NCBI GenBank assembly: GCA_048937405.1
Contig: JBHLNF010000003.1
Location: 64,001-128,000 of the forward strand
From: Promethearchaeota archaeon
Lineage (GTDB): Archaea > Asgardarchaeota > Lokiarchaeia > Sigyniarchaeales > SOKP01
Direction of reading: 5' to 3'
Length of the DNA stretch: 64,000 nucleotides
The notes below the pieces were generated by a model. The model did not search any database. It saw only the letters and a program-made list of their open reading frames with translations, and was not told where the DNA came from. The position numbers and the translations under genes were made by a program. How positions within the stretch are numbered: position 1 is the first letter of the stretch; each line of letters opens with the position of its first letter. Below, in pieces: positions 1-46,400 of this stretch.

Positions 1-528
1 ACGTGCTAATTCTGGTTTTCCTATTACTTCTTCTTTTGACATATAATCTATAGTAATTAATAGATCCTGTTCTATAATTTTGTTTGCCTCATCGACAAAA
101 TCCCGTAGTTTTTCAGGAGAATAATCTTGCATTGAGAAATCCATTCTCGTTTTATCTAATTCAATTTGATTACCTGTAATTTTTGCATCAGCTCTTTTAT
201 AAAGAATACTGCTAATTAGATGTGAAGCTGTATGATATCGCATGAATGTATACCTTCTTTCCCAATCAATTTCACAACTAACTTCATCTCCCTCCTTTAA
301 TCCAATTTTATCTACTTCATGACTTATTTCTCCAGAGAATTTACCAACATAGACGACTTTAAATTGTTGATCATTTTTTTTAATAAGACCCTCATCCCAA
401 GGTTGACCTCCTCCCTTGGGATAAAATGCTGTTTGTTCAAGAGTTATATATTTTCCATCTTTAACACCAACAACCTTAGTATTCCAAGTCTTAAGATAAG
501 CATCATCCATATATAAAGCTCTCTTCAT
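1..528 (-). CDS. alaX: Alanyl-tRNA editing protein AlaX (AlaX-M type), runs off the left edge
   Basis: Reverse strand from ATG at 528 reads MKRALYMDDAYLKTWNTKV...ILEQTAFYPKGGGQPWDEG...RYTFMRYHTASHLI. It has the GGQ motif and HxxxH zinc motif of AlaX. Missing from the ORF track because it is edge-truncated. Confidence 0.92.
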   Translation of the reverse strand, partial: MKRALYMDDAYLKTWNTKVVGVKDGKYITLEQTAFYPKGGGQPWDEGLIKKNDQQFKVVYVGKFSGEISHEVDKIGLKEGDEVSCEIDWERRYTFMRYHTASHLISSILYKRADAKITGNQIELDKTRMDFSMQDYSPEKLRDFVDEANKIIEQDLLITIDYMSKEEVIGKPELAR

Positions 529-849
529 AAAAAAAGAAAAGTATCCAAATTTAAAATATTAACTTTTATCAGTCTTAGGATTTCTCAGAAAATTATAATT
601 TATATTTTATATTAATTCAGTAGAAAGACCATAATCTCAAAATAAATAAATCTTAAAGCTTTAAAGCAATTTTAAAAGTATCACATAAGGGAATGAGGTT
701 AAATATACATCATATATTTATTCAATCTCTATTTTTGTGATTTAAATTATAAATATATAAATATGATTAGAGCAAAATAATAATCGAAGTTTTATTCAAG
801 TATAGAATTTCAAATTTTCAATTTAAAAAAAAATTAATGTTGATTTTGT

Positions 850-22394: not shown

Positions 22395-22456
22395 TATTTT
22401 TCATTAAGAGTATAAAGAAAATTTAAATAAAAATGATCAAATAGGTGCCAGATTAT

Positions 22457-25400
22457 ATGAGTAAAATAAAACAGGAACCAAATGAACTTAAATTGTCTAA
22501 TATGAAAAACAAGGAGAGATTCTACAACATAAAATTATCAAAAATTACTAATAAAAATAGGCTTTGTCAATATAATGGACAATTTAATGAAATTAGAAGA
22601 TTTAGGCAATGGCTATATAGAAATAATCTGTCTTTTTTAAAATTTAAAGAAGAGTTGCAAAATATCTGGAGTATTTTCAAGCGATATGAAGAAACTAAGA
22701 TGTACACCACACATGATCTTCTTTTTATGAAGATAATTAGACAACGAAATATTAATTCCTCCTCACTTATCATCTCTAAAGAATTCCATTCTATTTTGAA
22801 TAAAGAGAAAATGCAATTGTATCAATTATTAAAAAGAATTTCTGAAAATTATAAGCATCAAACTCATGTAGGGTTTTTAGATTATTATTCTTCAGATAAT
22901 CAAGAAAGACCTATTACCTCATCAAGTGCAAGTGGTCTATTAACTAAAGAAATAGGATGGAAACAAAATCGAATTATTCCCTATGATGATCCAACAAGTA
23001 GGGAAGTATGGGAGGAAAACCAAATTCTAGAATATCACCTTGCACAAAAAGAAGAAATTACTCAAAAACGCTTATTGGAAAGAAAAAAACTTTATAAAAA
23101 AGATCTGCAAATACAAAAAAAACTCGAAATAGAATACCGAACAAAATTAGATGAAGTCTCTAATGATTTACGTTGGATAAGATTGTTAAACAATAATAAT
23201 GATTTTAATGTTATATCAATTCTCAAGGAAAAGGAAAAATTTGAACACTTTTTTGTAGAAAACAACTTACCAGATCAAGAGTATATTGCTTTTCTTAGAC
23301 TATATAAGGAGATAAAAAAAAGATATAATTTTTTAAAAAAAATCGGATACCAAAAACACACTTCGTTATCATATAGAGAGGCTCAGTTAAATTTCCTAAA
23401 AGAACAGGAATGTTTAATTAATGATTATTTTAATGGTATTAAAAGAAATAATGAATTTATAAAGCAAACATCTTCTTTCAATAAACAAGCCCGTCAATTT
23501 ATTAGAAACATTATTAAAAATAATTCCTCTCTTAATTTAACTTCAGAACACCCAGAATTCTTGTTTATTAATCATGATAAAGAAAAGATTGAGAAAATAC
23601 CATATTACTTAGATTGTATAAACGATTTGTTGATTTTAGCTCAAAATAGAAAATATGTTAAAAAAATCTTGACAAAGAATATTAATTCTATTAAAATACA
23701 GAAGAAGAACAATCATAAAAAACAAGAGAAATCATCAGAAAAAGAAAACCTCTATTCAAAAAAAATTTTTAAAAATAAATTTGCCAAAAATTTTGTGAAA
23801 TCTTTACCTTTGATAAGTTTGGTTTTGGTACCTCTTTTAATGGTGTTTTCTCCTGGAGATAACTTTTATTCTGGATATTTATTAACTTACTTTCCTTTTA
23901 TGCAAGTTCTAATCTTTACTATTTGTCTTTTAATATACACTTGGGATCTAGTTTTGTCAAAAGCTCAATTATTATTTGTTACAGTATCGCCGATAATTCT
24001 TTTTAATCTTATAGTACTGATCAGTGAAATTTTCGGAGCGAGAGTATCTTTGTATATAACTCCAATTATGCTGATCCCTTCATATTTTGTATTAAGAAAT
24101 ATCCCTAAAAAAATCGAACGTGAATCTGAAAATTTAAAGCATTTATACCACAAAAGTAAAATATTAATTCTGTGGGTTTTGCTATCTATATCTTTTGTTC
24201 TTTTTTGGATAATTTTTGTTTTTTTTCCACGACTTCTATTTGTACCTGCATTTATAATAATTGTATCTATTGTTTTGTTTACTAAAAAATGTAATTATCA
24301 AAAGAGCAGAATTGTTGACCAATTAAAGAAAAAGTACTTTGACTATCGCTATCGAAAAAGTTCTCAAAAAGAGTTTTCATGCTATAATGCGAACAATTAT
24401 AGAGCCGCCCTATTAATGGCAATATTTCTTGTATTTATGCCATTACTTTTCTCAATTAATTCTATTGTTCGTATTGACTGTCCAGATCTTCAATTTTCGC
24501 GAATACCCCAGGATTTAAGACTTAAAACAAGTGATATAGATTATGATAACTTAGAATATCTTTCTTCACTCGATGTATTAGAAGACTTATCATTCAATGG
24601 CAAGTTTATTGCAAGATGCCAAATATCACCTAATTGGGGTGCAAGCGCTTCAATTAGAGTTCGCTTAATACCTAAAAACGTGACTCCAGTAGAAGGGTAT
24701 CAATTAAAAAAATTCTATGATATTTATTCCAAAGATAAAACAGGTCCTTTAAAAAATTATAGTCTAATTACTCATATTTCATTAAACGAATTAGATCTAT
24801 TACCAGGGAAATATGAGGCAAAGGTATACTACACTGAAATATCAGGATTTTCATATAGAATTGCTGAACCAAAAATATATGAAGTAACGTTAGAAAAAGA
24901 TGCCTTGAAAATCCTACCCACCCACCCATTTGATTTAGGAGAAGATGTAAATTACGGAGCGGTCTATACTTTTGAATATGAAAATTCCTGGAATATCACT
25001 TTTGATGGGAGATTAACAAATTCATTGGAAGAAGGTATTCAAGCAAATTTAACCTTATTTCTTGAGGACCATAACAAATGGGTCAATATTGCAAATATTA
25101 CCACGACAGAAAATGGCTCATTTTTCTTTGAGTATGCAAAATTTGGCTCCTTCGAGGTAAATGCGTTGGCTAAAATTGAGTTTGCGGGGGATGATCTTTA
25201 TGAACCCCTTATGTACGAAGAATATGCGGGACTTGAATTTTCCATTGATGGAGGAAGATTTTTTAGGGATGAGGATGGAGATGGGTATCCTGATTGGCCA
25301 TATAGTTTGTATGATTTGCTTGAAGCGCTAAAAGCGCAGGATGAGTATTATTCGAATGCTCTCGATTTTTTTGATGAGTTTGATACGGGGTACGGTTCTA

Positions 25401-28400
25401 CCACAACAGAAACCATCCACGGTTATACCGGTACCTTGAACGGCAATACAGCATGGGGATCGGGTGTTCGGGATTACGGACTTGTTCTTGATGGAGATGG
25501 TAATATTATGTATGATATCAATGAGTTCTTTAATATCTATATGTATGCTACTTATTCAATTCTTTCCTATGAATATTTTAGTGGTGGTGGAACATATGGA
25601 TCAACAGGTTCACCGACCACCACTTCCAGCGAGATAAGGACAGCGGGTGGTGAACCTGTAGCTGAGATATATTCTGCCCAGACTGCACTGGATATCAATA
25701 GAATAGTGGGTGGTGGGGGTAGCTTTGATAGCACCTTATCGGCGGGAACCGTAGCAAATGTAAATAGGGACATATACATAAGTGAATCAACAGAGTTACA
25801 TCCTACATCGTCGACCACAAGTGTTGAGAGAGGTGGTGAGGACTGGTCGAACCCAGGGAATGTGCAGTCCCAGGATAATGTCTACGCTTCTGCCGATTTG
25901 GTAGAAGGTGGTGGGAGCGGTGTTATCATTGAGGATTATGTGGATAGTGATACCTCGGATGTGGATGGGGTACCTGATGAGGGGACCTTAAGTGATTTCA
26001 ATAATATGCAAACGGTGGATGCCACCCATTCGACTATTACCGAGGAGGGTATTGGTGGTAGTGGAGGTACTTTCGGGTATGGGATAGGAGAGGGGAATAC
26101 AGTGACATCAAACGGCTTTTTGTATGTGGCCGGTGTTACGGGTTCCACGATTGCCACCTTTACGGGAGATGGGGTGGTAGAGAGTATTTGGATAGACATT
26201 TATGAGGATTACGGTGGAGTGCTTGATTTTTATCTGGGTACCATATCTGGAACTAGTTTTGTGTTCAAACAGTACGATCCGATTTGTTCTATTGATCCTT
26301 CGGTTGTGGGTTGGCAGGAGTTTACAGCCCCTGATGATTTTACGGCGTTTATGGTGGAAGCGGGGGATGTGTTGGGCTTTTATAGCAGTACCAGTGCGGT
26401 AACGGTAGGAAGATCTAGTTCGGGGTCGTATATGTCCTATCATTACAGTAGTGCGACTCGTCCGTATAGCGGAAGTGTTACGCTTAGCTCTTCGACGAGT
26501 AGGAGATTAGAGATCTTGGCAACGGCAAGTCCGCTTTCGTCTGATTATGTAGCAGAGCAAGAAGTGCAATTTACTGATGTAATGGACTTTATGGCAGTGG
26601 AAGAGCTGTGTATTAACACGGGTAGTATGGGTGCAGAAGACCTGGCGGTGGAATACTGGGACGGAGATTCTTGGGAGGTGATTGCCTCAGATTTAACCGC
26701 ATCAGCCTGGAATAATTATTCTGTGTCATTAGATAGTTCAGCTTTTACGGTTCGTTTTAGCGACGGTACCAAGACGGGAGATACCACTACGCAGGATAGC
26801 TGGACTATCGATGCAATGTTGTTGAAATACTCCGGGGGGGGTGTTAATGAGGATTATGTGGATAGTGATACCTCGGATGTGGATGGAGCGGGAGATCTCG
26901 GAGCATTGGCTGATTTTGATGATATGAAGGCAACAGATAGTTCTTATTCGACGCTGACCGAAACATCTGGATCAGTGGTGTGGTATAATGGTACGACTCC
27001 CAGTGATTTAATATTGGTTACGAGTCCTGATATATCCGGTACAGCGGTAACTTATACCACTTTTAATGAGGGCAATCTTGCTACTGATGATGATGCGTAT
27101 GGAGGTTTTAATATCCAAGACGAAGGTAGTGGGAATCCAACACAACAGGTGTTTCACTATTTTGATTTTGATATATCCGGTCTTGGAATTAGCGGTTCTG
27201 AATTAGACCAATTAATATTTGAGGCGGAGTATTATTTCCACGGTGGTACCTCTCTTGCTCCTGTTTCATCTGCTGATGTGTGGGAAATGGAAGGTAATTC
27301 CATCGATAGCGCTATTATGATTTATGATTGGACTGCATTATCGTGGTCGGTAATGGGGAGTATGGATTTCTTGAATGAAAACAATCTAGCAAATTGGGAC
27401 CAAACCAGTGATACAAATGCCGAGAGACCGTTGATTCGATCTAAAACCTCGGGATTCACGGACGGTCATATTAGTGGTAGTGGAATTATCCGCATCATGT
27501 GTAATATCACAGGCACTTTTCAAGGAACTTCCTATGACGGAGTCGGAGTAGTTGATTATGCTAAAATAGATTTCTGTTACTCCTCGGGAAGTGAGTATCA
27601 ACTGGAGCAGGAGGTACAATTTGAAGACATTCCTGATGAGGCGGATCAGATGCCAATAAAGGAGTTATGTATTAAAACGGGTAGCATGGGAGCGGAAGAC
27701 TTGGCGGTGGAATACTGGAACGGTGATTCTTGGGAAACATTATTCTCAGATCTAACAGCTTCTTCGTGGAATAATATCAGCATCTTAGGTTATCTATCAG
27801 CACCGACCTTTATTATTCGTTTCAGCGATGGTGCCAAAACTTCGGATGTATCAGGAGATGTGTGGAATATCGATGTGGTGTTGATTCATCTTGAGAATTC
27901 CGGCGGCGGAAGTGGTGGAGGAAACTCAGAATCGGATTGTTTACGTATTGATTTAGATTACATTTTGCCCGGAGCGGATCTTATAGAGGGATTAACTATA
28001 GATGGTATTGAGGTTCGCATTGATAGGCACGCAAGTGTAGCAAGTGCTCTTCTGGATTATTGGGTACAGCTACGCAATGCGTCGGGTCCGAAAGGTGATA
28101 ATAAGGCAAGTGCGGTGTACTGGGATGCTACTGACACGGACACCTATACGGTGTATGGAAGTTCGTTCGATGTATGGGGAACATCATGGACGGTAGCCGA
28201 GATTAACAGTGGTGGATTTGGAATAGACATAGTGGTAAACGCAAGTACTAACAGTATTGCTTATATAGATCATGTGATTGTATTGGTGTATTATTCAGGG
28301 TTTGTGTCTGGAAGGGAGTGGCAGAATCCAACAGGTGCGCAGGTACAAGATGATATAGTTACCTTTACAGAGTTTGAGGGATTGATCGAAAGTGAATCTG

Positions 28401-31400
28401 ATTGGTTGAGGTTAACTGATTTTGGCTTTATGATCCCCAGTACGGCAATCATTACCGGAATTGAGGTGGCTATGGATAGGTATGCGAATGTAAGTTCTAT
28501 TTATAGTAATGGTTTGTATTTACTCAAGTCTGGTGTGGAAGTTGGAATTGGAAAAGATATTGGAACTATATGGGACACCGTTGATGATGATAATTATGAT
28601 GTGTTCGGAGGTCCCGGAGAGTTGTGGGATGAGTCGTGGAGTTATTCTGATATTAATGATCCTGAATTTGGGATTCAATTGTCCGTATCTTCTATAGAAT
28701 CTTTTGATAGAAAAGCCTGTATTGATGATTTGAATATAACTATATATTATATCGAGCCGGAAGTTACTGCTGAGGTGTGGTTTGATGCGTTAAATTCCTT
28801 GGCACAAGACGATAATAGCGTCTATGTAGTGTTTAATGCAACGACAGAAAATAGTTCAAATTGGCTACGGTTGAGTAATTTTGGCTTTTCACTTCCCTCT
28901 GATGTGGTTATTAATGGTATTACGGTGGAGGTAGATAGAGCGGCAACTCAGAGTGCTGCGATCAGAGACGGCGAGATCTATCTGCGGAAGACAAGCGGTC
29001 GGGTTGGTGATAATAAGGCAAGTGCCTCGTGGTGGGATACTGTGGATGATGATGTGTATGATAGCTATGGTGGATCAACAGATTTGTGGGGGACTACATG
29101 GTCTTATTCTGATATTAACGATCCAGAGTTCGGAGTGGATCTGTATGTGGAAAATTTCGGAACGGGTGATGTCAATGCCAGTATCGATCATATAGTAATT
29201 ACGGTGGATTATACTCTACTCCCTCAGAATCAGCAACCCTGGGTGAATTCTCACTATGCGGGAGATCAGGATGATGATGAAACTTATGCCTCGTTTAGCA
29301 CGTCAACAGAAAGCAGTTCTGATTGGCTGATGCTGACAAATTTTGGTTTCTCTTTGCCATCAGATGCGGTAATCGATGGTATTACAGTAGAAATAGATAG
29401 GTTCGCAACCCAAGCATCTTCGATTAGAGACGTGGCGGTGTATCTAATGAATACAAGTGGCCCAGTTGGTGATAATAAAGCCAGCGCCTCGTGGTGGGAT
29501 ACCATGGATGATGATAACTACGATAGTTATGGCGGTGCATCTGATTTGTGGGGGATTACTTGGGACTATTCAGATATCAACAATCCTGATTTCGGTATGG
29601 TGATGTATGTGGAGTATCTAGGGTCTATGGCTACTGAAGCCAGAATTGATCATGTTCGTATTATCGTCAATTATACGATTCAGCCTACATTACAGCAGGA
29701 TAGCGGTGTTGTACGTCCTGATGGGGATGTTATGACTCAGTGGAATGCGTCGACAGCAGGGGATCATTATCTCTTACTTAATGAAGGTATTATCGATCCC
29801 ACGGTACCCAATACTAATAGCGGGTATATCTTTACTTCCAGTTCCAGTAGTGGATCATATATTATTGATGAATTTACGATGGAAACACTTGATATCAGCA
29901 GCGGAAATATCACACAAATCGAGATTAAAGTCTACGGCAATGAAACAATAAGTATTGATTCTACCATAGATGTATATTGCGGTGGTAGCTGGCTAGGAGC
30001 GCAACAACTAAATATGGGCACAAACGGATGGTATACCTATACCTGGAATGGGTTAAGTTTATCACAGGCGGATTTAGATGGAATGCAGGTAAAGTTTAAT
30101 TCAATCGTTCCCGATCCGATTCTTTCCAATCCAACCTACGAAGATTTTGATTTTGTACAATACGGAGATATTGTAGATCATATTCTCGGAAGTTCAAATA
30201 GCCAAACCGTAATTACCTCGTGGATTTTTCCAACCGCATTAACTTCAAATGTGAGTGAAAACGGATTGAATAATGTATTTATTTCAAAAAATGGTAATCT
30301 AGAATTGGGAATCAGCGAAGATGGACATCTACAGGTGTATATGAAGACAGTCGGTGCTGAAGCAACCGCCGAATATGGTACTTTTGGAGGAATAGACTTG
30401 GACCAATGGACCTATATTGCGGTGCGATATGATAAGGGTGATGTTGATGTGCTTATCGGGGATGCTTGGTACACCTCGGCAATCGGTGATGTTCCAGAAC
30501 CATGGAACGGTGGTGGAAATTTTATTAGTGGTGCTGAATTTATCATCGGTGCAGAACTTACTAACTATATCTGCTTTACAGGAAGATTAGATGAGGTAAG
30601 TCTGTTTAATCGATCGGTTTCTGATTCAGAGATTGAGCATCACGGTACTCGATCAATTCCTCCCTCACTTGATTTTCATCTTGAGTTTGAAGAAAATACT
30701 GGTTACTCTACCTTCGATTCCGTGCATAATTACGAAGGGACTTTAGAAGGAAATACAGCGTGGGTTAGTGGGTATGATGGTTACGGTCTCAATTTTGATG
30801 GACAGGGTACTATTGTGTATGAAGAAAGATTTGCATCATATATGTATGCCACCTATTCGATTATTTCCTATGAATATTTTAGTGGTGGGGGTAGCTTTGA
30901 TAACACCTTATCGGCGGGAACCGCAGCAAATGTGGATAGGGATTTAGGTAGTAGCAGTACAGAACTTACTCGGTCTCCAGCTACAACGACCTCGGTTGAC
31001 AGAGGCGGTGAAGACTGGTCGAACCTAGAGAATGTGCAGTCCCAGGATAATGTCTACGCTTCTGCCGATTTGGTAGAAGGTGGTGGGAGCGGTGTTATCA
31101 TTGAGGATTATGTGGATAGTGATACCTCGGATGTGGATGGAGTTCCTGATGAGGGGACCTTAATTGATTTCAATAATATGCAGGCATTGGATGTAATATA
31201 TGCAACTATCACAGAGGTTGGTGATAGTGGAGAGGGAGGTACTTTCGGGTACGGGATAGGAGAGGGGGATACAGTGACATCAAACGGCTTTTTGTATGTG
31301 GCTGGGGTTACGGGTTCCACGGTTGCCACCTTTACGGGAGATGGGATGGTAGAGAGTATTTGGATAGATATTTATGAGGATTATGGAGGAGTGCTTGATT

Positions 31401-34400
31401 TTTATCTGGGTACCATATCTGGAACTAGTTTTGTGTTCAAGCAGTACGATCCGATTTGTTCTATTGATCCTTCGGCTGTGGGTTGGCAGGAGTTTACAGC
31501 CCCTGATGATTTTACGGCGTTTATGGTGGAAGCGGGGGATGCGCTGGGCTTTTATAGTAGTACCAGTGCGGTAACGGTAGGAAGGTCAAGCTCAGGGTCG
31601 TATATGTCCTATCATTACAGTAGTGCGACTCGTCCGTATAGCGGAAGTGTTACGCTTAGTTCTTCGACGAGTAGGAGATTAGAGATCTTGGCAACGGCAA
31701 GTCCGCTTTCGTCTGATTATGTGGTGGAGCAAGAAGTGCAATTTACTGATGTAATGGACTTTATGGCAGTGGAAGAGCTGTGTATTAACACGGGTAGTAT
31801 GAGTGCAGAAGACCTGGCGGTGGAATACTGGGACGGAGATTCCTGGGAGGTGATTGCCTCAGATTTAACCGCATCAGCCTGGAATAATTATTCTGTGTCA
31901 TTGGATAGCTCAACCTTTACCGTTCGGTTTAGTGATAGTACCAAGACGGGAGATACCACTACGCAGGATAGTTGGACTATCGATGCAATGTTGTTGAAGT
32001 ATTCCGGGGTGGGTGTCAATGAGGATTATGTGGATAGTGATGCCTCCAATGTGGATGGAGTTTCTGATTTAGGAAATTTAATTAATTTTGATGATATGAA
32101 GGCAATAGATAGTAGTTATTCGACATTGACCGAAACATCGGTAGGTGGGAGTAATATAGAGTTTGTTGATTCTACCGAAGTAATCGGTAGTCAATCAATG
32201 TCTTTAAGTGTTCCTTCTGTACAAAACGGAGATTTTATGATCACGATTGTGGCTCATTCTGATGATAATCCTACTACAACACTTACACCTCCTTTGGGAT
32301 GGACATTGCAACGGGATAAGACAAATATGGGTACAACAGCGGTTTCACCTCCGGTGATTTATGTGTATTACAGAATTGCGAATAATGAACCGTCGTCTTA
32401 TATCTGGAGTTGGGATACCGCAGGTGGTGTAGTGGGTGTGTGTCTGGCTTACAGAAATGTTGATACTGTTACAGCAATAGATATTGATTCTTTAAATGCC
32501 CAGACGAGTTCTGGAACAGATGTCATATCACCGAGTATAGTGACCAATAATGATGGGGATTGGATAATTTCGATAGAGTGGCATGACGATGATGATGGTG
32601 TAACTGGTCCTTCTGATAGCGGGTTCACTGTACGACATGATGTGCAAACCGCAACAGGAGGGAATGGATTGGGGATAGGTGTTGGTGATGAGTATCGAGC
32701 TACTGTTGGTTCAACAGGAACGAGAACTTGGACCCTTTCCTCTTCTGAGGAGCGGAGCGGTATTATGCTTTCCATTACTCCAGCTGCGGGTTCAAGCGAA
32801 TATCAACTGAACCAGGAGGTGCAATTTGAAGGCATTCCTGATGAGGCGGATCAGATGCCAGTACAGGAGTTATGTATTAAAACGGGTAGCATGGGAGCGG
32901 AAGACCTGGCTATGGAATACTGGGACGGGGATTCCTGGGAAGTACTTGCTTCTGATTTAGTAGCCTCTTCGTGGAACAATATCAGCATCGTAGGTTATCT
33001 ATCATCAGCGACCTTTACCGTTCGGTTCAGCGATGGTACCAAAACCTCGGATGGATCAGGAGATGTGTGGAATATCGATGCGGTGTTGATTCATCTTGAG
33101 AATTCTGGTGGTGAAGGAGGAAGTGCTGAATCAGATCTTTTACGATGCACTGATTTTGATTTTTCCAGTATTCCAGATACAGCAACAATAGATGGTATTA
33201 CTGTAGAAATTGATAAGTATACGGATGTATCTGATGCTATTTCAGATTATTCCATACGCCTTAGAAATTCAGGTGGTCCAAAGGGAAGTGATAAAGCCAG
33301 CGCTTCGTATTGGTCTACCTCTGATACTGATACTTACACGGTCTATGGCAGTTCAACTGATCTGTGGGACACTTCATGGATGGTTTCTGAGATTAAAAGC
33401 GCAAATTTTGGGGTAGATATTATAGCAGAAACGGGTACCAGTGCCAGTGCGTTTATTGATCATGTACAGATCAAAATAAATTATATCGAATCTTTTTCAG
33501 GTAGGGAGTGGCAAAATCCGAGTAATGCAAATACTCAGGATGATGTTGACACTATTGTGGTATTTACTACTACTTCTGAAGATACTTCTGATATATTACG
33601 ACTTACAAATTTTGGATTTATAATTTCTGATATCGTAAATATTGTAGGTATCGAAGTGGGATTTGATCGTGAGGCAAATATTACAAATTCTATCACCGAT
33701 GGCTATCTAAAATTATTGAAAGCTGGATCTCCAGTAGGAGATGATAAAGCGACGACAACACCTTGGACGGTTGGAGACGATGATACATATGATATATTTG
33801 GCGCTTCCGATGATCTGTGGGGTACTTCGTGGACATATTCTGATATTAACGATAATGGGTTTGGAGTGGAGTTGTTTGTAAATTATACGGGTTCTTCCAA
33901 TGCTGAGGCTAGAATTGATCATATCCATATTACCGTGTATTATACGGTACCACCATCTTTACAGCAGGATAGTGGTATAATACGTCCATATGGGGATGTT
34001 TCTGCTCAGTGGAATGGATCTGATGTGGGAGATCATTTCAGTTTATTGAATGATATTGTTATAGATCCTACCATTCCAGATATCAACCTCGGATATATTT
34101 TTTCTTCCAGTAGAAGCTCTGGACCGTATATTGTTGATGAATTTACTATGGATACATTGGATATCAATAATGGTAATGTAACGCAAATTACCATAAAAGT
34201 ATACGGCAATGAAACCGATATTGATTCTAGGGTGGATGTGTATTGTGGTGGTAGTTGGTTAGGAGCTAAACAGTTGAATATGGGTTCGATCCCAGGATGG
34301 TATATTTATACTTGGAGCGGATTAAGTTTATCTCAGGCTGATCTTGGAGGGATGCAAGTGAGATTCAACTCGACCGTTCCCACGCCAGGACCAATAGAAT

Positions 34401-37400
34401 TTTATGAGGATTTCGATTATGTGCAATTTGGAGATATTTTAGATAGCACCTTTGATACAACCGAATTTACGATATGTGGATGGGTTAATCCAACTGCATT
34501 TTCCGATGTAGAAAGTTCCCATGGTGTGAACAACGTCTTCTTCTCAAAGGAGGGCATCCTGGAATTGGGAGTAAATGAAAGCGGTTATGTAGAGGTCTAT
34601 CTTGATCCGAATAACTTGCCTGACGCAACCGCAACCTACGGTACCTCGGGAGCGGTTCAAATAGGCCAGTGGAATTTTCTTGCGGTACGGTATACCAGAG
34701 GAAATGTTGATGTGATAATTAATGATGTTTGGTACACCTCTGCGGTGGGAGGTACTACGGAGCCGTGGAGCGGAGGGAATCAGCTGGAGAATGGTGGCAC
34801 CTTCATTATCGGTGCAGAACTGACTAATTATACCTGTTTTGCAGGGAATATAGATGATGTGAGAGTGTATAATCGCTCATTAACGTTTAACGAAGTTGAA
34901 GAAATTCGGTTAGGGAATGAACTTAGACTGGAATGCACAGTTTCACGAGAAAATGGTGCGGGTGGATGGGTACCTATTACTTCGGGAGAGCTAATCGATA
35001 GTTATATTCACTTTGAATGTGAAAAAATGTATGGTGAAATGGTAGCCCTTGAAACAGTTGAGTTTTACATAGCGACATATGAACCTACAATGTTAGAAGA
35101 TCCAGTTCCCGATGAATGGAGTTTGATTAGAAGCTACTCCTATAATCGGGATCATTATTCGTTTGTTGTTCACAGTAGAAATCTACCAGACGAACCCACC
35201 TGGTATTTCATTGTTCGAGTGGTATGTTCAGATCAGAACGTTACGTTTAGTATATATAGTAATTCGTTTGGTATTAGTCATTTCGAAGAGTCTGTAAATT
35301 TTACCTATGTCAATATTGATGGGCGTGTTAATCATAATTCTCAAATTGGCGTGTTACCACTAGAGAGATTTAGCTACCACATAGAATCTATTAATCTATA
35401 TGTAAATTATTCTGGGTCGATTGATAAAGTGAATAACGTGCCTTTCACATACAATGATATGTATTTTAATAATTGGTTACTTGAACTTGATGAATTAACA
35501 CAATGGGTATTAGATGAAGGATTATTACCAGGTGAGTATATCATCAATTTCATTGTTGAAGCAAACTTTACTTTCGGACCAGAATTTAACTATTATATGT
35601 ACAACTATACGATGGGTAATATTACTTTAGATATCGAAAGTCCAGATATTACATTAAATATACAACACAATCCATTTGAAACGACATATACAGATGAAGA
35701 AGATCACTTATTAACAGCGCAGCTAGATTTTATAGATGATCACTTTTCATATGTAAGGCTCGATTACATGTATCATACCTATGAAACTCAGGAAATTTGG
35801 AGGGATTACGGTATAGAATTTACAGGATCGTCCCCTAGTATGAATATTACGTTTGACATACTCAATTTTAGAGATGATAACATTTCTATGAGGTTTATTG
35901 GCTATGACGATTTGGGTAATGAAAAAATTCTAGATGAAGCCAGTTTTTGGTTCCTAAAAGATATGAACAACCACCGTGATTTTGTAGTAAACGGTATTGA
36001 TGAGAATTATTTGTATTCTCTCGATCACAGCGGAAAAATCGATCTTGATGTAACTATATATCCAGTTGATAATGATATCACCAAAGTAACGCTTACAACT
36101 ATGTACGAGAATTTTAAACTCAATAACACAGTTATAGAAAATGATCATATCTACTTCAGCGATACGAGTGTAGGTGAGATAAATATTAAACTAAACAGTA
36201 TCTATTATGAAGTATTTGCAACTGATTTTCTTCAGATTCCAGTCACCATACGATTATATCAGGATGATAATATAATAGCAACAAAACAATTTACCATTAT
36301 CTCAACCACAAAGGTGTTTGAGGATCCCATAGAGATATCTGGAATTGATATCAATTTAGATTATAATGATGAAGTGGTATATGAAGAAAACTTTAATGAG
36401 TCAAATTGGAATTTATACGGAAATAATCCACACACATTTGATGTATCATCATCTACGATTAATAACTATTTAAATAAAAATCACTCTTTAAAAGAGTCAT
36501 TTTATAGTTATACAGGCGAATATAGTTTAGAATCTCCTTCAGGCTCTATTCACTTCAATGAAGACGATAACCACTGGTACGTATTTGATAAGAGCAATAG
36601 TAGATTATATCAATATAATCCCGATTGGACATATACTGGCACATTTTACAATATTGATACATCATCATTTCCCTCATTTGAACCTACTTCTATTTATTAT
36701 GAAGATGATTGGTATGTATCTGGTACAAATTCTGAAGATTATTTATATTCCTATCTCAGAACATCTACATCCAGCAACATACCTTTAAATAATAAGTATG
36801 AAATAGTTGAAACCCCATATGGGATTTATTTTTCGGATTTGAATGGTCGTTTTATTTATAAGACTTCTGATGAGGGAAAAACTTTTACAACGGTAGTAGA
36901 TGAATCACAGAGTGTAACACGTATTAAAGGTCTTTTGTTTGATGAAAATACTAATCGTCTATACTTTTTACTGTCGGATAATATCTATTATGATGAGTAC
37001 TCTCTAAAATCAAAATATATAGAATTAGATAATAATGATAATGTTGTTGAACGATATAATATATATTTTCAAAAAATGTCTTTATCACCCATTGATAATT
37101 TTATTCATCAAAATAGAAAATATGAATTTTATGAATATCAAGAACCCAGTACAGCGGATATAATATTTGAAATAAGAGATCAATCAGGACCTTCGACATG
37201 GTCATACAATATGGGATCTACTATAAATCATTATGGATCATTTCACCATACTTATCCAACTCTCGTAGGAAATAATCTATGGTTCTTGGGTGGTTGGGAC
37301 GATGGAAATGTTGAAATATGGAGGTTCAGTTTAGTCTCCAAGGTTTTTACAAAAATGAAGGATTTAGGAGCCAATACTAAGATCCCTTTAACACCTATTT

Positions 37401-40400
37401 ATCAGCTGTATGGAGAACTTGCGTATAATGGACATGATCATCTTTGTTTTATAATTGAAGGTGTATCTGATGACCGACGTTATTATTGGAATTACTCGAT
37501 TTCTACAAATATAGCAATTAAAGGAGCAGAATGTGACGTTTCGTTTATGTTAAATAAATATGCAGATGGATATACGAAAGCTTTTGATCGTGAACAAGGT
37601 ATAATATATTTACTAACTGATAACGGATTAGAAACATTCTATGAAGAGGATTTTCAGGCGCCTATCTCAGTTATAACTGAAAACTATTTCTGGACATTCG
37701 ATAAAAAATTCTACAAGCTTGAATATCCTAACTTATTGAAATTTGATTATGATTGGAGGATATATTCTGGCTCTCATTATGATATTGATGTTAGTAACAA
37801 CGGTCTTAATTCTATGTGTTATCAGAATGGATACTGGTATGTGGCTGATGGTAATTTTATAAAGAAATTTAATGCGGAGTGGGTATATCAAACAGAATAT
37901 TTTGTAGGTTCTGAAGATACACCGATATCTCTTAAGTTTAATGAAGATGATAGTTACTGGTATATGCTGGGTGAATATAGTTCAACGGTGTATAGATATG
38001 ATTCTAACTGGGTATATACAGAAACATCATATAATATAAATCAAGACGCAGATCCAAGAGGGATTTATTATCATAATGGATACTGGTGGATGTGCGGTAA
38101 CGAACGTGACAAAATCTACAAATACGATAATCTTTTTACGGTTTCTAAAATATATCAGGGAAATGGAATTTTATACTGCCAAACGGGTGCTACTGAAACA
38201 ATATCATTAAGAAGTAATAGTCTTGATCTTGATCTAATACCTGGAGATATTATTGAAATTACATATAACACCACTTCGACACACGAGATAATGTTTAATT
38301 TGTTAAGCTCTGGAATACAACAAAAAGGATTTAAATTGATACAAGAGGGGAATAAAAATTTCGGTACTAAGACTGTAGGATTTATTCTTGATAATTTTGA
38401 TGATTTTTATGATAATATAGATCAACTCGAATTTACTGGAACATTTGACGATACTCACAATTTAGTAATAGATCACATAAAGATATACCGCATTCCTCCG
38501 AATATTTTTATGAATGTGTCTTGTGGGAATTCGTATAACAACTCTTATAATTTACCATTTATAGTAAATAACATCAATCCCTATGTTGAATTTTACAATT
38601 CCGAGAATGAATTAGTGCAAACAGTAAGGTTATTCTCAAATGTGAGTGATATGAGAGTACAACTTTATTCCAATGAATACTTATACCTATACACAAGTAC
38701 AAAACTACCAGCAAACACGCATTTATGGTGGGAAATTGGTAGCGGAGAATTGTATCTTGTAGATGCTGCTGATCAAACTCAATTGTATGTATCTACCGAT
38801 GAAGGAATGACCTGGATTCAGGTAGATATTGATCCTTCTGACACTTCTGGAGATGCTAAATCACGAGATCACAACATCCAATCAGCGTGGCATGACAACG
38901 TAAGTCAGGTTATATGGTTTGTTGATTGTGATGATGGAACGGCAGACAATTTCGATGTGTGGAAACTTGATTACAGTACGAATAAAACGCACCCAACTAT
39001 AACAGAAATAGGAACTTCTAGTGGTGCTGATGCAGGTAGTGTGATGTTTACGGATATTTTTGTATATAGTTCAGATACATATGTTGTAAATTATGAGGAG
39101 AGATCAGGCACTAAAGTCGTTGTCGTTTGGGATGTGGATACTGCACCATTTACTCAGGAGGGTATACACTATCCAGGCAGTCCAGCGACACATGTTGAAC
39201 TGTCTTTTGTTACACTTATAGGTGATGATGTCTATCTTACTGAGGAACTTGACACAGGACAACCATCACCCATGGATTCAATTCGCATACTGCGTTTTGA
39301 TCTTTTTACCTCATCATGGGGCGCTCCAGATTATCTAAGTGGGTATGATATGCTAGAAAGGGGTATCGTCTATGATGGTAATGATACTATATATTTTATG
39401 GCTGCTAACATTGCTGATGGCAAGAATTATGTATGTTCTTATTCTATTTCAACCTTTACAATTACAGTGGGACAAGAAAATAACATTTCATTTATGTTAA
39501 ACCGAAATGCGGATGGATATGGAAAAGCATTTCATACAAATGGCATAATATATCAAATTACTGAAAACGATATTGAGTTGTTTAATACTAGATCTTATGA
39601 TGATGATGTAATCGCTATTACAGAAGGATATATTATGACCGCAAACGGTAAGTTATACATCTTTGAAAACATTACAATTACGCGGAACAGGTTTAAGGTA
39701 CCATTTCCAGATTTAAATCCTGGAGAGGAATTGGCGGATATAAGAGTTGTTACTATTAGCGGTACCTCATATGAATTTTATTATTTTATAGATGCAACTG
39801 ATCAGGAAATTTACATCAATTTACTAACAGATGAAAACATTGATGGTACATATAATGAGATATATATACGGTACGGATTTACTAACACATCTATCGGATT
39901 TCATCAGTTTTATGGATATTACGACTTAAAATCAACTCTTTTTATCCCAGAAGGGAATTATACATTAAAAGGCTACTTTCATGATATTTCGGGTACAGTT
40001 TCTAAATTTTTATCAAATACAACACATGTAATTGATTTTGAAAGTCCTCGGGTGTTCAAGCAATTTGAAGAAAGTGTAATAATTAATAATCTAAAAGATG
40101 GATTTATTTCATTCATTATTGAAGATTTTAGCGGTATCGACGAGTGCTTTTTCCTTGATCAAATTTTTGATGGGTATTGGGATGTTCAAGGTAATCTTTA
40201 TACCTATTACTTTACTGATCCCCATGCGACTATATTTTTATCTGAATTTTCAACCCCTTCTTTGTGGAATTTCAGCGTCGCCTATGGGAAATTGGACTAT
40301 CATAATCTTGAACATATTGATAATATCAATACAACAATTTATGGTGAGTATACCACATATGACACTCCAGAACAACCCAGCGACGTCATTGTAATAGATG

Positions 40401-43400
40401 GAATTATTACAGATTATGGAAATCTCGAATTTATTGATAATAACGAAACAACAATTGATGCCGAGTATAGCGGTAGTTCATATGACATTAATGCAGAAAT
40501 ATTAATCGATGGGATACCGCCAAATATAAATGACTGGAGGTCCTACCTCAGATTTAATCATAGTTCTACTGCAACTATTGATTTTGATATATGGGATTAT
40601 ACATTATCCGATTGGCAAGATATAAGCGCAGGCCATTATCCAGCAACCTACAGTTTTGAAAACGATCAAGCTGGGCAAAATCCTAGTGAATGGGATATAG
40701 ATGAAACAGGAGGGACTGTCGACGTTCTCGCTACTTTTCAAAGACATGACAAAGTTGTAAAAATTACAGATAGTAGCGGTTCTGATTATCCACGATTTTA
40801 TCAAAGTATCGATTATTTATCATATGGAAAGGTGGAATTTTGGATTTGTGCAGGTGAGACTGATAGAATGCATCGTTTTGCGATTGTTGATTATATGGAT
40901 GAAGGACTTGAGTTTTATATGAGAAATAATGGGCAATTTTCTTATTATGATGTTAATGGGTATCATGATATAGGCGCATATATTACGAATCAATGGTATC
41001 ATATCAAAATAGAATTCGGTCTTACAGACTGGCATCTGTGGATAGATGGTGTTTCTAAGGATCAAGGGAATGGATATGGATATTATGGATATCGTATACC
41101 ATTTACTATTATGACTTTTGAAACAAATTCAGGGGAAACTGGCGCTGATTTTTATATTGATGCAGTAGGAACTTCTTGGTATTCAAAGAAATATAATATC
41201 GGGGACAATAAATACGCAACTCAATTATTATCTACTGATTTAATTAACAATCGCGTTGTAAAGGTACGGTATATAGCCACTGATTCAACCGATTTTGTAC
41301 TAGACATTGATCAACTCCGAGTAGATTACTATGATGATAAGTATAAAATAGAAGGAGAAATTGAATGGTCAGTAGATGATCCAATTTTATATTCAATCGA
41401 TTCGCTACGATTTAGTCAGTTTGTTGAAAACAGACTTGATAATTTTGATATATGGAATTATACATTAGGTAATTGGCAGGATATTTCAAGTGAAGACAGT
41501 CCATTTACACTTTCATCTGATTTTTATGACAGTAGCAATATTATAAAGGTTCGTTACATAGCATCTTCTGATACCACTTTTGGCTTAGATTTAGATCAGC
41601 TCAGAACTGATTACACAACTACAATACCAGTTGAAGGATTTGTATCCACATTCCATTTATTTGTTAAGGATACCGTGGGTAATAATAATACAATTGGTAT
41701 TTCACTCGCATTTGATGATGTGCCTCCTGCGATTGAAGATTTGTACATACATACCAAATATTGGAATGAATTACTGAGAATTGATATAAAGATCAAAGAT
41801 ACTTCTGATTATGATATTTCATTGATGTTAAAAAACATCATTAACAAAGCAACCTTTACTCGGTTGAAATACACCATCACAAATGTAGGACAAGATGAAT
41901 GGCAGATTTTGTTAGATACATCTCAACTGCCGAATGGCTTGTACGATATTTATCTCACCATAACAGACATAGCGGGAAATTCACTTATACATGTTATTGA
42001 AGACATATATTTGGATAACAGTCCCGTAGAATTTTTGTATCTTGAAGATAAAGTAATAATCGACGACATTTCGATGTATAGTTTTGTAATTGATGATGTA
42101 TTATATTTCAATGATAGAAAAGAAATAGCTATTTCTGCAATTGACATTACCTACGACGGTTTTAGCTGGAGTTTAATTGATCCAGCGCTGGGTATTCAAC
42201 AAGGGGTTCATAATATTACAATGTATATAACAAACGAGCTTGCTTATCACCCCGTTGTGTTATCAACCGAATTGAATTATGATACACTTTCATATGTAAT
42301 AATCGGCTATGGTACCTATCCAAATATTATATATGATACACAAGCCATCAAGGAAATCAAGCGGTTGAAAATTAATGATGTAGTTATAGAAAATAACGGG
42401 TTTTCGACCTCATTTACTGGAGGTTCATATGTATTGCATATTGATCCTCATTATACATATTTACTATCCCCATTAAATACAATTGAAGCCGAGTTCTATG
42501 AACGCATTGAAGACGGCATTTATTTTGAGTTTGATAGTATTAGTATGGAATGGGTTTTGAAATCAAGTGGAAAAGATTTCTTTAATATCTCTGAGTATCT
42601 GTCACTTTCTGAAGGAGAAGAATTTTACTTTTGGTTCGAATTGGAAGATGGAATGGGTGTTGCCAAAAATGGTTCGGTATCATATAATCCGTGGTGGAGA
42701 TACACAGGGATTAATTATCCAGTTTTTCCAGTTAACGAAACATCTCCAAAAAGCATATACTACCAAAATGGATATTGGTATGTGCTTGGAGATTATAACA
42801 ATAAAGTATTTAAGTACTATTCTAATTGGATACCTACTGGTGAGTCATATTCCATTGCTTCTGAGGATAACCTACCACAATCGATCTATTACTATGATGG
42901 ATATTGGTGGGTATTGGGTCAATTTAACAAAACTGTGTTTAAGTACAATCCAGACTGGACTTATACTAACTTAAACTACACGATAGATGAAGATGCCTGG
43001 CCAACTTCAATTTTTTATCATAACGGATATTGGTGGGTGCTCGGAAATGCTCAATCAGAAGTATTTAAATATAACTCTGATTGGACATATTCTGGAGAAT
43101 CATTTTTACTCGAAACAGAGGGAGATCTAAGTGACATCAATTTTGAGGGAGGATATTGGTATGTCTGTTGCAATGATAAAAGAAGGATATATAAGTACGC
43201 AGTTGATTGGACATATTTGGGAGAATCTTTTTCAGTAAACGCGAATCCGACCGCTATTCATTATGCAAATGACTACTGGTGGGTTCTGGGAGAACAGTCA
43301 AGAATATACAAGTATATGTGGCAGACTTCGAATGAGACAAGGGGAAATATCTTTATCACCCATACCTATAAAGGAATTTATGATAATTCAATTGAACGGA

Positions 43401-46400
43401 TAGGTGATGGGAACTTATTTGAATGGAACCTCGGTACTACGTCTAATGGTACAGGAGTTGTGATTTTCGGTACAGATGAGTACAAGGATAGCTTGATCCA
43501 GATCGATCCGTCATCAGTGCTTCCTGATGTGAACGATGATATGGATATCGCGAGAGTAATGATTTATGGAACTGAAAATCCTGAGTATTACATTGTGGAT
43601 ACTGCGTGGTGGAATCTTGATGAAGGTACAGGAAACATTGCTGAAGACTCTATTAATGGAGATCACAATGGTATAATTTATGGGACGACCTGGGATGATG
43701 GATTAAACGGTAAAGCACTGTATTTTGATGGTATAAACGATTATGTTTCAACAAATCTTGATATGACCTCTATTTGGACTGCTGGGGATCCGATTCACAT
43801 ATCTGTTTGGTTCAAAACTACCGCAACGAGTGGTTATATCATCGCGGGAACTCCTGAAGGAGGTCCAGATATAGCAGTTCAAATGTATAATGGACAAGTT
43901 AGAGTTCGATTGTACGGCGATACAGTAGCGGCATCTGATAATGAAGAATATAATGATAATGAATGGCATCTTGTCGATTTTGGCTGTAATGAAACTGATT
44001 CTTATTTCTATGTCGATGGTGTATTACAATCAACCGCACCATCTATTGGAACCTTTAATCGAGAGACTTCCCTAATGTTTGGTGCCCGTAAAACTCCTGC
44101 TCAAGACTTTTATGAGGGTTATATTGATGACATTCGTATTTATCAATACGCGCTCTCAGGTGATCAGATTCAATGGTTATATAATGAAGGTAAAGGTAGA
44201 ACATCACTATGGGATTTTGTTGGTAGATGTTATTATGATGAAGTAGAAGATAGGTGGGTGTATTACTGGAATGACGAAACTGTTGATGATATTTCTTCTA
44301 GAACGTATCATTTAAAGAGCTATGTATTTGATAAAGCTGGTAATTACCTTGATTTTAACGAACATTACAGTGGAACTTATAGTTTTGAACACGATACAAT
44401 TGGATTCATACCTAATGGATGGATAGGTAGTTCGAGCGCACCTGTATATGTAGAGGTGATTGATTCGTGGGAAGCTCATAATAAAATGCTAAGAATACAT
44501 GATGATGGAATACAAACACCATTCGACTTGATTGCAGTAACCGAGAACATATTTAGTAGTCAGCAAACAAAAGGTACTATTGAGTTTTGGTGGGGCGCTG
44601 ATAATGTCTATGATTGGTCGCAATGTGTTGTCTACAACCAAGATACTTTTAAGTCAATTCGTGTAGTACTTTATCAGAATAAGTTTCAATACCATGATGG
44701 ATCATCATATCAACCTCTAGCTGATGTTTTTAACAATACTTTATATCATGTTCGATTAGTGTTTGATTGTGATTTAGATACATATGATATTTATCTGAAT
44801 GGGAATTTAGAAAAGGATGATGCTCAATTTTTATTTAACGCGGATTCTTTAAAATCATTAGATTTTTCAATGGCAGACGAAGATGGAGGTGGTGCAGATC
44901 TTTATGTCGATGCGATAGGGTACTCATGGGATAATGATTACAAAATCGGAGATAACAATTTTGAATTCGGACGTTCAGCGGTGCAAATCTATGATTTTGT
45001 GGATATCGAACTTGCCACTGACATCATTCTTGGAAAGGTGTTTGAGTACAACAGCACCTTACCACAAAATATACAAGAAATAACAGGAATTATTCAAGAT
45101 TACTTTGGCACTGATAATCTATGGGACATTATAGTTGAGTATTATAATCCGTTAGAACATGAATGGATACCTCTGGCAGTAGATTCATCGGTAATTACCA
45201 ACGGAAAGTACACAATTACCTGGGATATCAATCAGGATGAAACATTCTTGAATTCAATGTATTATTTAGAATATGAATTCCTTCCTTATGCAATTCCTAA
45301 TAGCGGTTCTGAATTGTGGGGATCATGGGGTACCTTTTATTCAGGTGGAGATTGGCAACCCATTGTTGTAACAAAACACTCTTCAGACGTCGATATTACT
45401 GTATATAAATTTGATGGCATAAACGGATGGCAGGTGGATACCCAGCGCAGTAGTGAAAATACTATACCATCGCTAAATGGTGAAGTATTCAAATTATTTG
45501 ATATCAACAATGACGGAGTGAGTGAAATTGTCAGGGTATCTCCCGCTCAAATTGATGTGATCTATTTAGATCTGGATGTGTGGGTACTACATGAAAATGT
45601 CACCTACATGAGTGGGTATGAATATTTTGCATTTGATCTATTTTATGATGAAGACTTCGATAAAACTATACTAGTTGTCATGCAAGAAAATATTGCTCAA
45701 GGAATCTTATCACTGTGGAAATATCAGTTTGATGCTCAATTTAACCTTGATTTGGTAAGACAGGTTTACTGTCCTTTAAATTTTTATCCATATACTATAA
45801 AAATTGTAAACGATTTTTCAACAAACGATAGAAACGCGATATTAGTAGGTGGGTTAATGGAAGGAGGCGCCTATTATTCTCAGCTTCTTGAATATGACCA
45901 GAATTTGGATGTACAAAAAGTAATTACAGAGGAAGTTCTGGGAAAAATTAGCGCTATTGAATATGAGCAAATTAACGGAATACATACGATTTTCCTTGGT
46001 ATGGATCGACTTGCAATCGGAAAAATGGATGCTGTAGTAGTACTGAAGAAAAAAGAATTTTCGGATGAATGGAATGAATTAGAATTAGGGGAGTTTGAAG
46101 AGGACATCAAGTTTAAGATTTTGGATCTTCTTTTTATCAATGATAATAATAATATGAAATTGATAACAGCATCAAACACGGGGGTGTTTCAAACATCGAT
46201 CATATATGTAGAAGACAAATCTACAATTAAAAGCCCTATTGTCGTGAAGAAGTTAATGCTACTTAAAGATGATTTGAACTCAGAAAGTCATCCTTTTCAC
46301 ACAATCGAAATTACTGATCGAGTGTATTCTATAGAAAGGGTATATTATAAGTTAAACAACAGATGGGTGGAATTGGGAGAATCAAAGTATGTTTATTCAA

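Follow-up and report, generated by a model that had tools for sequence, protein, structure and literature searches.

Two long insertions in a giant surface protein of a Promethearchaeota archaeon probably represent side branches, each grown within one loop of a LamG domain by repeated insertion of domains into domains, in which short leading segments (“stubs”) are the first strands of domains (“bodies”) whose remainder follows much later in the same chain. The protein is encoded in the stretch of DNA analysed here, referred to as the window (64,000 nucleotides; positions 64,001 to 128,000 of contig JBHLNF010000003.1, assembly GCA_048937405.1), by an open reading frame (ORF) which occupies 22445..64000 on the plus strand and runs past the window end to reach 20,619 amino acids in the genome. 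The two insertions, together with their LamG hosts, are called arm 1 and arm 2.

In the proposed arrangement, the chain would exit LamG, lay down the last hairpin of a permuted basal domain (R), and then move away from LamG in successive single beta strands; these are the stubs, and each would be the first strand of one jelly-roll body resembling carbohydrate-binding modules (CBMs) and MAM domains. Once the innermost body has its strands 1 and 2, two “socket” domains would follow, each interrupted by a “cargo” domain of its own, and the chain would then return, completing body 1 and body 2 (and next, in arm 1, bodies 3 and 4) and R before re-entering LamG. The product would be a two-stranded stalk of stacked jelly rolls which holds two cargo modules off the main fibre, and since both ends of the branch lie at one LamG loop, the main fibre would be uninterrupted. 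The number of stub-plus-body layers, four in arm 1 and two in arm 2, would set the stalk length. Linkers of ~6-10 residues between stubs and between bodies fit this nested register. We infer that the outer stubs are docked in nested order, that the stalk is rigid and that the cargoes are binding modules. With somewhat less assurance, the balance of the evidence favours arm 1 as a nest of eight levels (LamG > permuted R > body 4 > body 3 > body 2 > body 1 > socket > cargo) in which layers tune the length of the stalk. An earlier interpretation made from the DNA letters alone (the sequence-only reading) had proposed the layer order LamG > R > bodies > socket > cargo, which agrees with the present parsing; R is better described as circularly permuted.

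Order of units and split hosts in the two arms

The units of the arms were derived from a BLASTP self-comparison of the ORF protein, of which 13,852 amino acids lie inside the window. They are listed below by window position and strand, with residue numbers (aa) of the ORF protein where these are used in the text; HMM denotes a hidden Markov model, G007 is an orthologue described below, and pLDDT is the predicted local distance difference test score of the model of arm 2.

Arm 1
25361..25507 (+), aa 973-1021: LamG N-part; 59.7% identity to the arm 2 N-part; contiguous with the C-part in G007
25508..25591 (+), aa 1022-1049: aromatic hairpin; resembles the terminal hairpin of contiguous R-like domains
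25592..25786 (+): outer stubs 1-3 of 22, 21 and 22 residues; proposed first strands of bodies 4, 3 and 2
25787..25921 (+): stub 4 and N-strand (the latter aa 1130-1159); strands 1 and 2 of body 1; HMM 30.5 bits, E 2.8e-9
25922-26068 and 26540-26842 (+): socket 1, split by cargo 1 (26069-26539)
26843-26974 and 27590-27922 (+): socket 2, split by cargo 2 (26975-27589)
27923..28309 (+), from aa 1827: body 1, without strands 1 and 2; matches HMM parts C and D only
28310-28759 (+), from aa 1956: body 2, begins at the second strand
28760-29224 (+), from aa 2106: body 3, begins at the second strand
29225-29689 (+), from aa 2261: body 4, begins at the second strand
29690..30136 (+), aa 2416-2564: R domain, 149 residues, without the usual terminal hairpin; 72% identity to arm 2 R
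30137..30667 (+), aa 2565-2741: LamG C-part; 50% identity to the arm 2 C-part

Arm 2 (aa 2742-4156)
30668-30823 (+): LamG N-part (self-comparison, orthologues)
30824-30892 (+): R hairpin (self-comparison, orthologues)
30893-30955 (+): outer stub; best match of the family strand-1 HMM in the 13,852-residue window protein
30956-31003 (+): inner stub; strand-1+2 HMM 31.5 bits, jointly with the N-strand
31004-31093 (+): N-strand, modelled as part of body 1'
31094..33118 (+): two sockets with cargo; the socket 2 cargo is 32147-32794
33119-33499 (+): body 1', CBM/MAM-like jelly roll, pLDDT ~90
33500-33958 (+): body 2', CBM/MAM-like jelly roll, pLDDT ~90
33959-34399 (+): R domain; 72% identity to arm 1 R
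34400-34912 (+): LamG C-part; matches PF13385 of Pfam at 62.6 bits (cut-off 27.6)

The four stubs of arm 1 start at 25592, 25658, 25721 and 25787 (aa 1050, 1072, 1093 and 1115) and all end in Arg, which in each of the outer three lies 6-7 residues ahead of a Gly-rich or polar linker. The sequence-only reading had described these four Arg-ended stubs and four bodies, and they are found as described and in frame, as are all the coordinates that it quoted. Arm 2 repeats the unit order of arm 1, and its stubs and bodies number two each. BLASTP aligns these stubs with the third and fourth of arm 1 (57.5% identity), body 1' is closest to body 1 of arm 1 (50.8%), and body 2 opens with an identical eight-residue junction in both arms; the earlier statements that arm 2 has only the two inner stubs and two bodies, and that the retained outer body opens alike in both arms, are thus borne out. 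Identity between the arms is patchy: it reaches 94-97% over the N-strand, cargo 1 and the C-part of socket 1 (25832-26842 against 31004-32011), and amounts to 78% in the N-part of socket 1, 72% in R, 60% in the LamG N-part and ~50% in the bodies and the LamG C-part, which suggests recent cassette exchange or gene conversion superimposed on an older duplication. Among the bodies, similarity is highest between 3 and 4 of arm 1 (61%), and the youngest layers may therefore be the outer ones. The genome holds no third arm beyond these two.

The splitting of LamG, of body 1 and of the sockets by cargo is solid, each being shown by sequence or by model. The profile of Laminin_G_3, a concanavalin A-like lectin domain, covers the C-part of arm 2 from position 5 to 150 of its 151 positions; the Pfam scan left the C-part of arm 1 itself unreported, though it is 50% identical to that of arm 2. 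In orthologous giant proteins from the same genus (G003, G007 and G014; G denotes genomes, P proteins and L loci), the N-part and C-part of LamG either directly adjoin without interruption (G007) or are separated at the identical loop by smaller inserts, of 205 residues in G003, ~400 in G014 and ~310 in the second G007 copy, and LamG is therefore a true split host. A circularly permuted LamG formed from the C-part of arm 1 and the N-part of arm 2 was considered and rejected, because it is the N- and C-parts of the same arm that are adjacent in the orthologues.

Body 1 lacks two strands, and the second of these sits right after the last stub. By BLASTP, the match of body 1 with the other bodies begins only at about position 28 of the latter, and an HMM of strands 1 and 2 of the family matches aa 1120-1155 in arm 1 and aa 2843-2879 in arm 2, at the scores listed above. 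The insert of arm 2 (aa 2794-3985) was modelled with AlphaFold2 from a 20-row alignment; the mean pLDDT is 53, with bodies 1' and 2' at ~90 and R and the N-strand partly confident. In this model the CBM structure 2y64_A spans model residues 60..886 (Z 8.6, root-mean-square deviation (rmsd) 3.5, 121 residues aligned), and the spanning of 60..886 by CBM chains of which ~120 residues align indicates that the N-strand and body 1' are modelled as one jelly roll interrupted by a 672-residue insert.

Within arm 1, the N-parts of the two sockets are 63% and their C-parts 59% identical, with 78-96% identity between arms, while the two cargoes are mutually unrelated. Cargo 1 is 97% identical in the two arms and the cargo of socket 2 differs between them: that of arm 2 (32147-32794) is unrelated to cargo 2 of arm 1 and resembles the LamG-loop insert of G003 (E 7.5e-4). 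A relative of the same cargo sits directly inside body 1 of P0004 and P0016, so that cargo of this kind is found at three different nesting depths: in a LamG loop, in body 1 and in socket 2. The three cargoes gave no significant match to PDB sequences, and sockets and cargoes gave no Pfam match, having been searched there only within the Pfam scan of both arms. The nested insertion claimed by the sequence-only reading is well supported for LamG > body 1 > socket > cargo; for the docking of the outer stubs, the support comes from comparison with relatives.

Stubs and bodies in the arms and their relatives

The case that the outer stubs are displaced first strands begins with what the bodies lack. 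In contiguous Asgard members of the family (L020, L012, L013 and L025), a stub-like segment directly precedes the conserved Trp. Bodies 2-4 keep the second strand and are missing the first, and only 9-10 residues separate the last strand of the preceding body from the next conserved Trp, compared with 17-31 in contiguous members. Among the proteins retrieved, the spacers between consecutive bodies are bimodal, with 29 cases of 4-11 residues, which include all abutting Asgard bodies, others of at least 17, and none of 12-16. The segment missing between abutting bodies is ~15 residues, which is the size of a stub. For the RPTPmu MAM structure (2v5y), alignment with a complete member of the family begins at MAM residue 2, and with body 2' only at residue 22. 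The earlier statement that the bodies lack their first strand is therefore right for bodies 2-4 and needs amending for body 1, which is split after its second strand.

The numbers of stubs and bodies also agree. It had been proposed that the two are lost or gained together, and they are equal in every complete arm that could be read, nine in all and drawn from several genomes and contigs. The stub/body count is 0/0 in G302, which has hairpin, cargo and R only; 1/1 in the LamG arm of G177, in P0076 and in a second, contiguous protein of G177; 2/2 in P0016 and arm 2; 3/3 in P0004 and P0002, whose lineages are repeated by P0007 and the P0175 contig; and 4/4 in arm 1. The chance of equality in all nine arms is 24 of the 9! 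pairings, or 6.6e-5, a value which overstates the significance because the arms are partly related. The stubs were counted by eye, in nine complete arms of which several come from related lineages, and many other homologues end at contig ends. Most of the comparison arms come from metagenome proteins, since a search of 300 genomes of the phylum with bodies 1' and 2' matched only one other genome (G177) at E <= 1e-10. Further searches added little to this sample: that of genome contigs for related loci with the N-part of arm 2 gave no confirmed relative, that for whole-arm homologues gave extra matches to LamG, socket or cargo and none to bodies, and that for longer homologues gave mostly N-terminally cut fragments.

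Profile searches place the stubs where the pairing would have them. An HMM built from the innermost stubs matches the outer ones, weakly, where they should lie and as often as they should occur, and the family strand-1 HMM, which contains no Asgard stubs, finds its single best match in the whole window protein at the outer stub of arm 2. The scores are low, as is to be expected for segments of 10-15 residues.

Two further observations concern stubs in relatives. Residues 1-100 of P0010, a 416-residue metagenome fragment cut at both ends, contain at least five stacked stub-like repeats before the first body, and nests deeper than four body layers may thus exist. In the JGI contig of P0175, a frameshift or deletion lies within the innermost stub and N-strand of the 3/3 arm (L028:2700-2860) and splits the gene call in two; either a fault in the assembly or a damaged copy could account for this.

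R, the basal domain, also seems to have a part displaced. Contiguous R-like domains in other proteins carry an extra aromatic-rich hairpin after the strand which closes R in the window; the window R lacks this terminal hairpin, and a matching hairpin precedes the stubs. Six arms have both hairpin and R (G000 twice, G177, G302, P0016 and P0176), and both are missing from four (G003, G014 and both LamG domains of G007). The reading that best suits these sequence comparisons is a circular permutation of R that encloses the entire nest, with its last hairpin before the stubs and the rest after the bodies. The graded series formed by these relatives suggests growth by the wrapping of layers round cargo, which would have passed from no insert to cargo only, then to hairpin and R, and then to one to four layers.

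The family to which the bodies belong is large. When bodies 2-4 were compared with 1.84 billion cluster representatives, 9,911 proteins matched at E <= 0.001. The bodies and R have no significant match in Pfam or PHROGs, and body 3, the only body so searched, has none among PDB sequences; a match of bodies 2-4 to the VIT domain was set aside because its 22.7 bits fall under the cut-off of 26.5. In the language-model Atlas, the nearest neighbours of body 3 are clusters of hypothetical proteins of tailed phages, 171-191 residues in length (score 0.96). The fold is a CBM/MAM-like beta jelly roll: a homologue matches 4zxe_A (Z 9.6, 122/132 residues), 2v5y_A (Z 9.5) and 8yt7_A (Z 9.4), and bodies 1' and 2' of the window match CBM/MAM structures at Z 7.9-8.6, values which are moderately above background, so that a Z of 8-9.6 may mean a common fold only. 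The sequence searches brought up no relative whose structure has been solved or whose ligand is known. In three genomes of the same genus, proteins of ~2,090 residues (L020, L012 and L013) carry a single contiguous body inside a different loop of another LamG-like domain, and the body family therefore acts as guest as well as host; read by eye, that LamG-like domain lies downstream of an N-terminus resembling DUF2341.

The family nests widely elsewhere. A consensus was built from 219 complete copies that had been aligned, four part-HMMs were cut from it (A, strand 1; B, the strand with the conserved Trp; C, the middle; D, the C-terminal two thirds), and these were used to write architecture strings for the 150 best of the 9,911 relatives. 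Many of the 150 have stacked N-pieces followed by an equal number of C-pieces (for example 3+3, 4+4 or 6/6/6), the split falling after strand 2 or after the domain middle. The string B B BCD CD CD occurs in P0041, P0050 and P0093, B BCD CD in four proteins, BC x4 ... D x4 in P0019 and BC BC BCD D D in P0128, and P0023 has a mixed six-domain nest (6/6/6). The displaced N-pieces of the bacterial or phage-like relatives are longer than stubs, at 40-65 residues. One two-level nest of this kind (P0068:135-478) was modelled from a 100-row alignment with a mean pLDDT of 96.3 and a predicted template modelling score of 0.88, and its outer N-piece has a pLDDT of 97 and forms strands. Single-domain PDB chains align on this model either to residues 41-216, the inner domain, or across 1..340 with only 116-139 residues aligned (8yt7_A, Z 9.4; 7ay3_A, Z 8.4), which indicates a discontinuous outer domain made from the first 40 and the last 125 residues (1-40 and 217-340); the structure so predicted is that of a homologue and not that of the window protein. 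To judge from the strings and this model, host and guest in relatives clearly come from one family over several levels, and with the two further loops at which it nests the family would have three split points.

On this comparative evidence the window's own outer stubs likely dock on their bodies. Several points weigh against that. In the model of arm 2, the stubs and the hairpin have a pLDDT of ~30 and no secondary structure, and bodies 1' and 2' fold without stubs. An edge strand may be dispensable, and the bodies stable without it. The likeness of the outer stubs to strand 1 is weak, with HMM scores of -5 to +6 bits; the count that carries the comparison was made by eye in partly related arms; and the nested order of pairing is argued from two things, the linker lengths and the model of a two-level homologue. 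The failure of the stubs in the model is itself weak evidence, since sockets and cargoes are also below 50 there, and it neither supports nor refutes stub packing. Nor was anything counted either way from a complex prediction of stubs 1-3 (aa 1050-1114) against bodies 2-4, in which the ipSAE interface score was 0.00 in both runs, made without controls.

If the stubs were instead Ser/Thr/Gly-rich linkers, possibly glycosylated spacers, then bodies 2-4 would be a plain tandem array of a shortened domain with no need of strand 1, and only LamG, body 1 and the sockets would be split. The disordered stubs beside well-folded bodies in the arm 2 model, the low-complexity composition of the stubs and their weak match to strand-1 profiles would all suit this explanation, which is nevertheless unlikely. 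Linkers give no reason for equal numbers of stubs and bodies in nine arms over a range of 0-4, nor for the resemblance of all stubs, in their pattern and in a motif that closes with Arg, to the innermost one, whose position and HMM match make it strand 1. The segment missing between abutting bodies is of stub size, and the relatives that keep the same bookkeeping have N-pieces of 40-65 residues which cannot be linkers, one nest of that kind being modelled at a pLDDT of 96.

A different possibility is that the stubs do complete bodies, but in another register, between arms or between molecules, so that donor-strand exchange would tie arms, or several copies of the protein, to one another. In chaperone-usher pili, beta sandwiches short of one strand are known to be filled by a strand from another source, and the present data do not fix the register of the outer layers in the arms: matrices of similarity between N-pieces and C-pieces in eight multi-layer relatives gave no consistent best mapping, the pieces being too short. 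Exchange of this sort is nonetheless improbable, because the numbers balance within each arm (4/4 and 2/2) and in single-arm proteins, the covalent chain of the innermost stub runs straight on into strand 2 of body 1, the short linkers favour the nested register, and the two-level homologue is modelled as an intramolecular nest.

The giant reading frame and its genomic setting

That the arms are an artefact of assembly or annotation, with repeats mis-joined in a metagenome-assembled genome, is scarcely credible: the source assembly does consist of 29 contigs (4.47 Mb) with 5.7% contamination, and a related metagenome contig does carry a frameshift in the same region, but the ORF is a single frame of 20,619 codons on the genome contig with no stop, the repeats are only 34-61% identical and cannot be collapsed or expanded copies, and the same architecture occurs on independent NCBI, JGI and marine-sediment contigs.

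The N-terminus of the giant protein is basic and is followed by hydrophobic segments and then by an acidic, Ser/Thr-rich chain, and by these features the product, a surface protein of an Asgard archaeon, is membrane-anchored. Asgard archaea are the closest known relatives of eukaryotes. The nearest database relatives are proteins of metagenome-assembled genomes named by their source as Hodarchaeales, Heimdallarchaeota, Kariarchaeaceae or Promethearchaeota. The G+C content is 0.41-0.44 over 26000-34000, which covers both arms, against 0.25-0.36 in the flanks of the ORF and the upstream genes; this may reflect the Gly/Asp/Ser/Thr-rich composition of the domains or a foreign origin of the nest cassette. 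Upstream of the giant ORF, 3295-4341 (plus strand) encodes a 348-residue protein that consists nearly entirely of leucine-rich repeats (LRR_4, 2e-59), and its neighbours are housekeeping genes for glutamate dehydrogenase, aconitase, fumarase and TatD.

Comparison with other nested and strand-complemented proteins

At the level of the single domain, the likeness of the bodies to CBM4, CBM32 and CBM36 and to the MAM domains of RPTPmu and meprin is that of a shared beta jelly roll (Z 8.4-9.6, rmsd ~3-3.7 A, 116-139 residues aligned). The bodies differ from these domains in having no Pfam or PHROGs model and, for body 3, no significant match to a PDB sequence. Their family is large (~9,900 cluster representatives) and is found on the Asgard cell surface.

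The completion of a body by a displaced strand recalls the donor strand of the chaperone-usher pili by analogy, with no homology. In the arms the donor strand would lie upstream in the same chain, and the product would be a nested monomeric stalk rather than a polymer. The question which this raises is whether a jelly roll can be held together by a single displaced strand. It also poses a puzzle for co-translational folding, since the first strand of the outermost body would be made ~1,200 residues before the rest of that body.

Domain insertion of the ordinary kind (A1-B-A2, or A1-B1-C-B2-A2) is mostly one level deep in a 2026 ECOD-wide survey of 2.7 million domains (PMC13114784). Likewise, a complete guest lies between the two pieces of LamG, of body 1 and of each socket. 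The arms differ in that arm 1 would have eight levels if the pairing of stubs holds, and in that one family would provide both host and guest.

The closest comparison is with the Si3 insertion in the beta' subunit (RpoC2) of cyanobacterial and plastid RNA polymerase, in which sandwich-barrel hybrid motif (SBHM) domains are recursively nested, to a reported depth of six levels (PMC13114784). In Si3, and by the proposed arrangement also in the arms, beta domains of one family lie in loops of copies of themselves, so that stacked N-pieces, a core and stacked C-pieces follow one another, and an elongated arm exits and re-enters its host domain at one point. Self-nesting of domains has been documented in very few systems; here it would extend to a whole family, with three split points and a graded series that opens the growth of nested proteins to testing. 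If the eight levels are true, arm 1 would be deeper than Si3, and the design principle would be that of a rigid display stalk of tunable length with both ends together.

The arms are not members of Si3. Their bodies are CBM/MAM-like jelly rolls and not SBHM domains, and they belong to an extracellular giant archaeal surface protein, where Si3 belongs to a cytoplasmic enzyme. The number of layers varies in the arms, from 0 to 4 among close relatives and even within a single protein that has two arms. What is displaced may be no more than one strand, the family would have three split points, and the nest includes unrelated hosts (LamG, R and the socket) together with swappable cargo. The arms would work like Si3, but are unlike it in fold, in location, in their variable depth, in their split points and in that the unit displaced may be a single strand.

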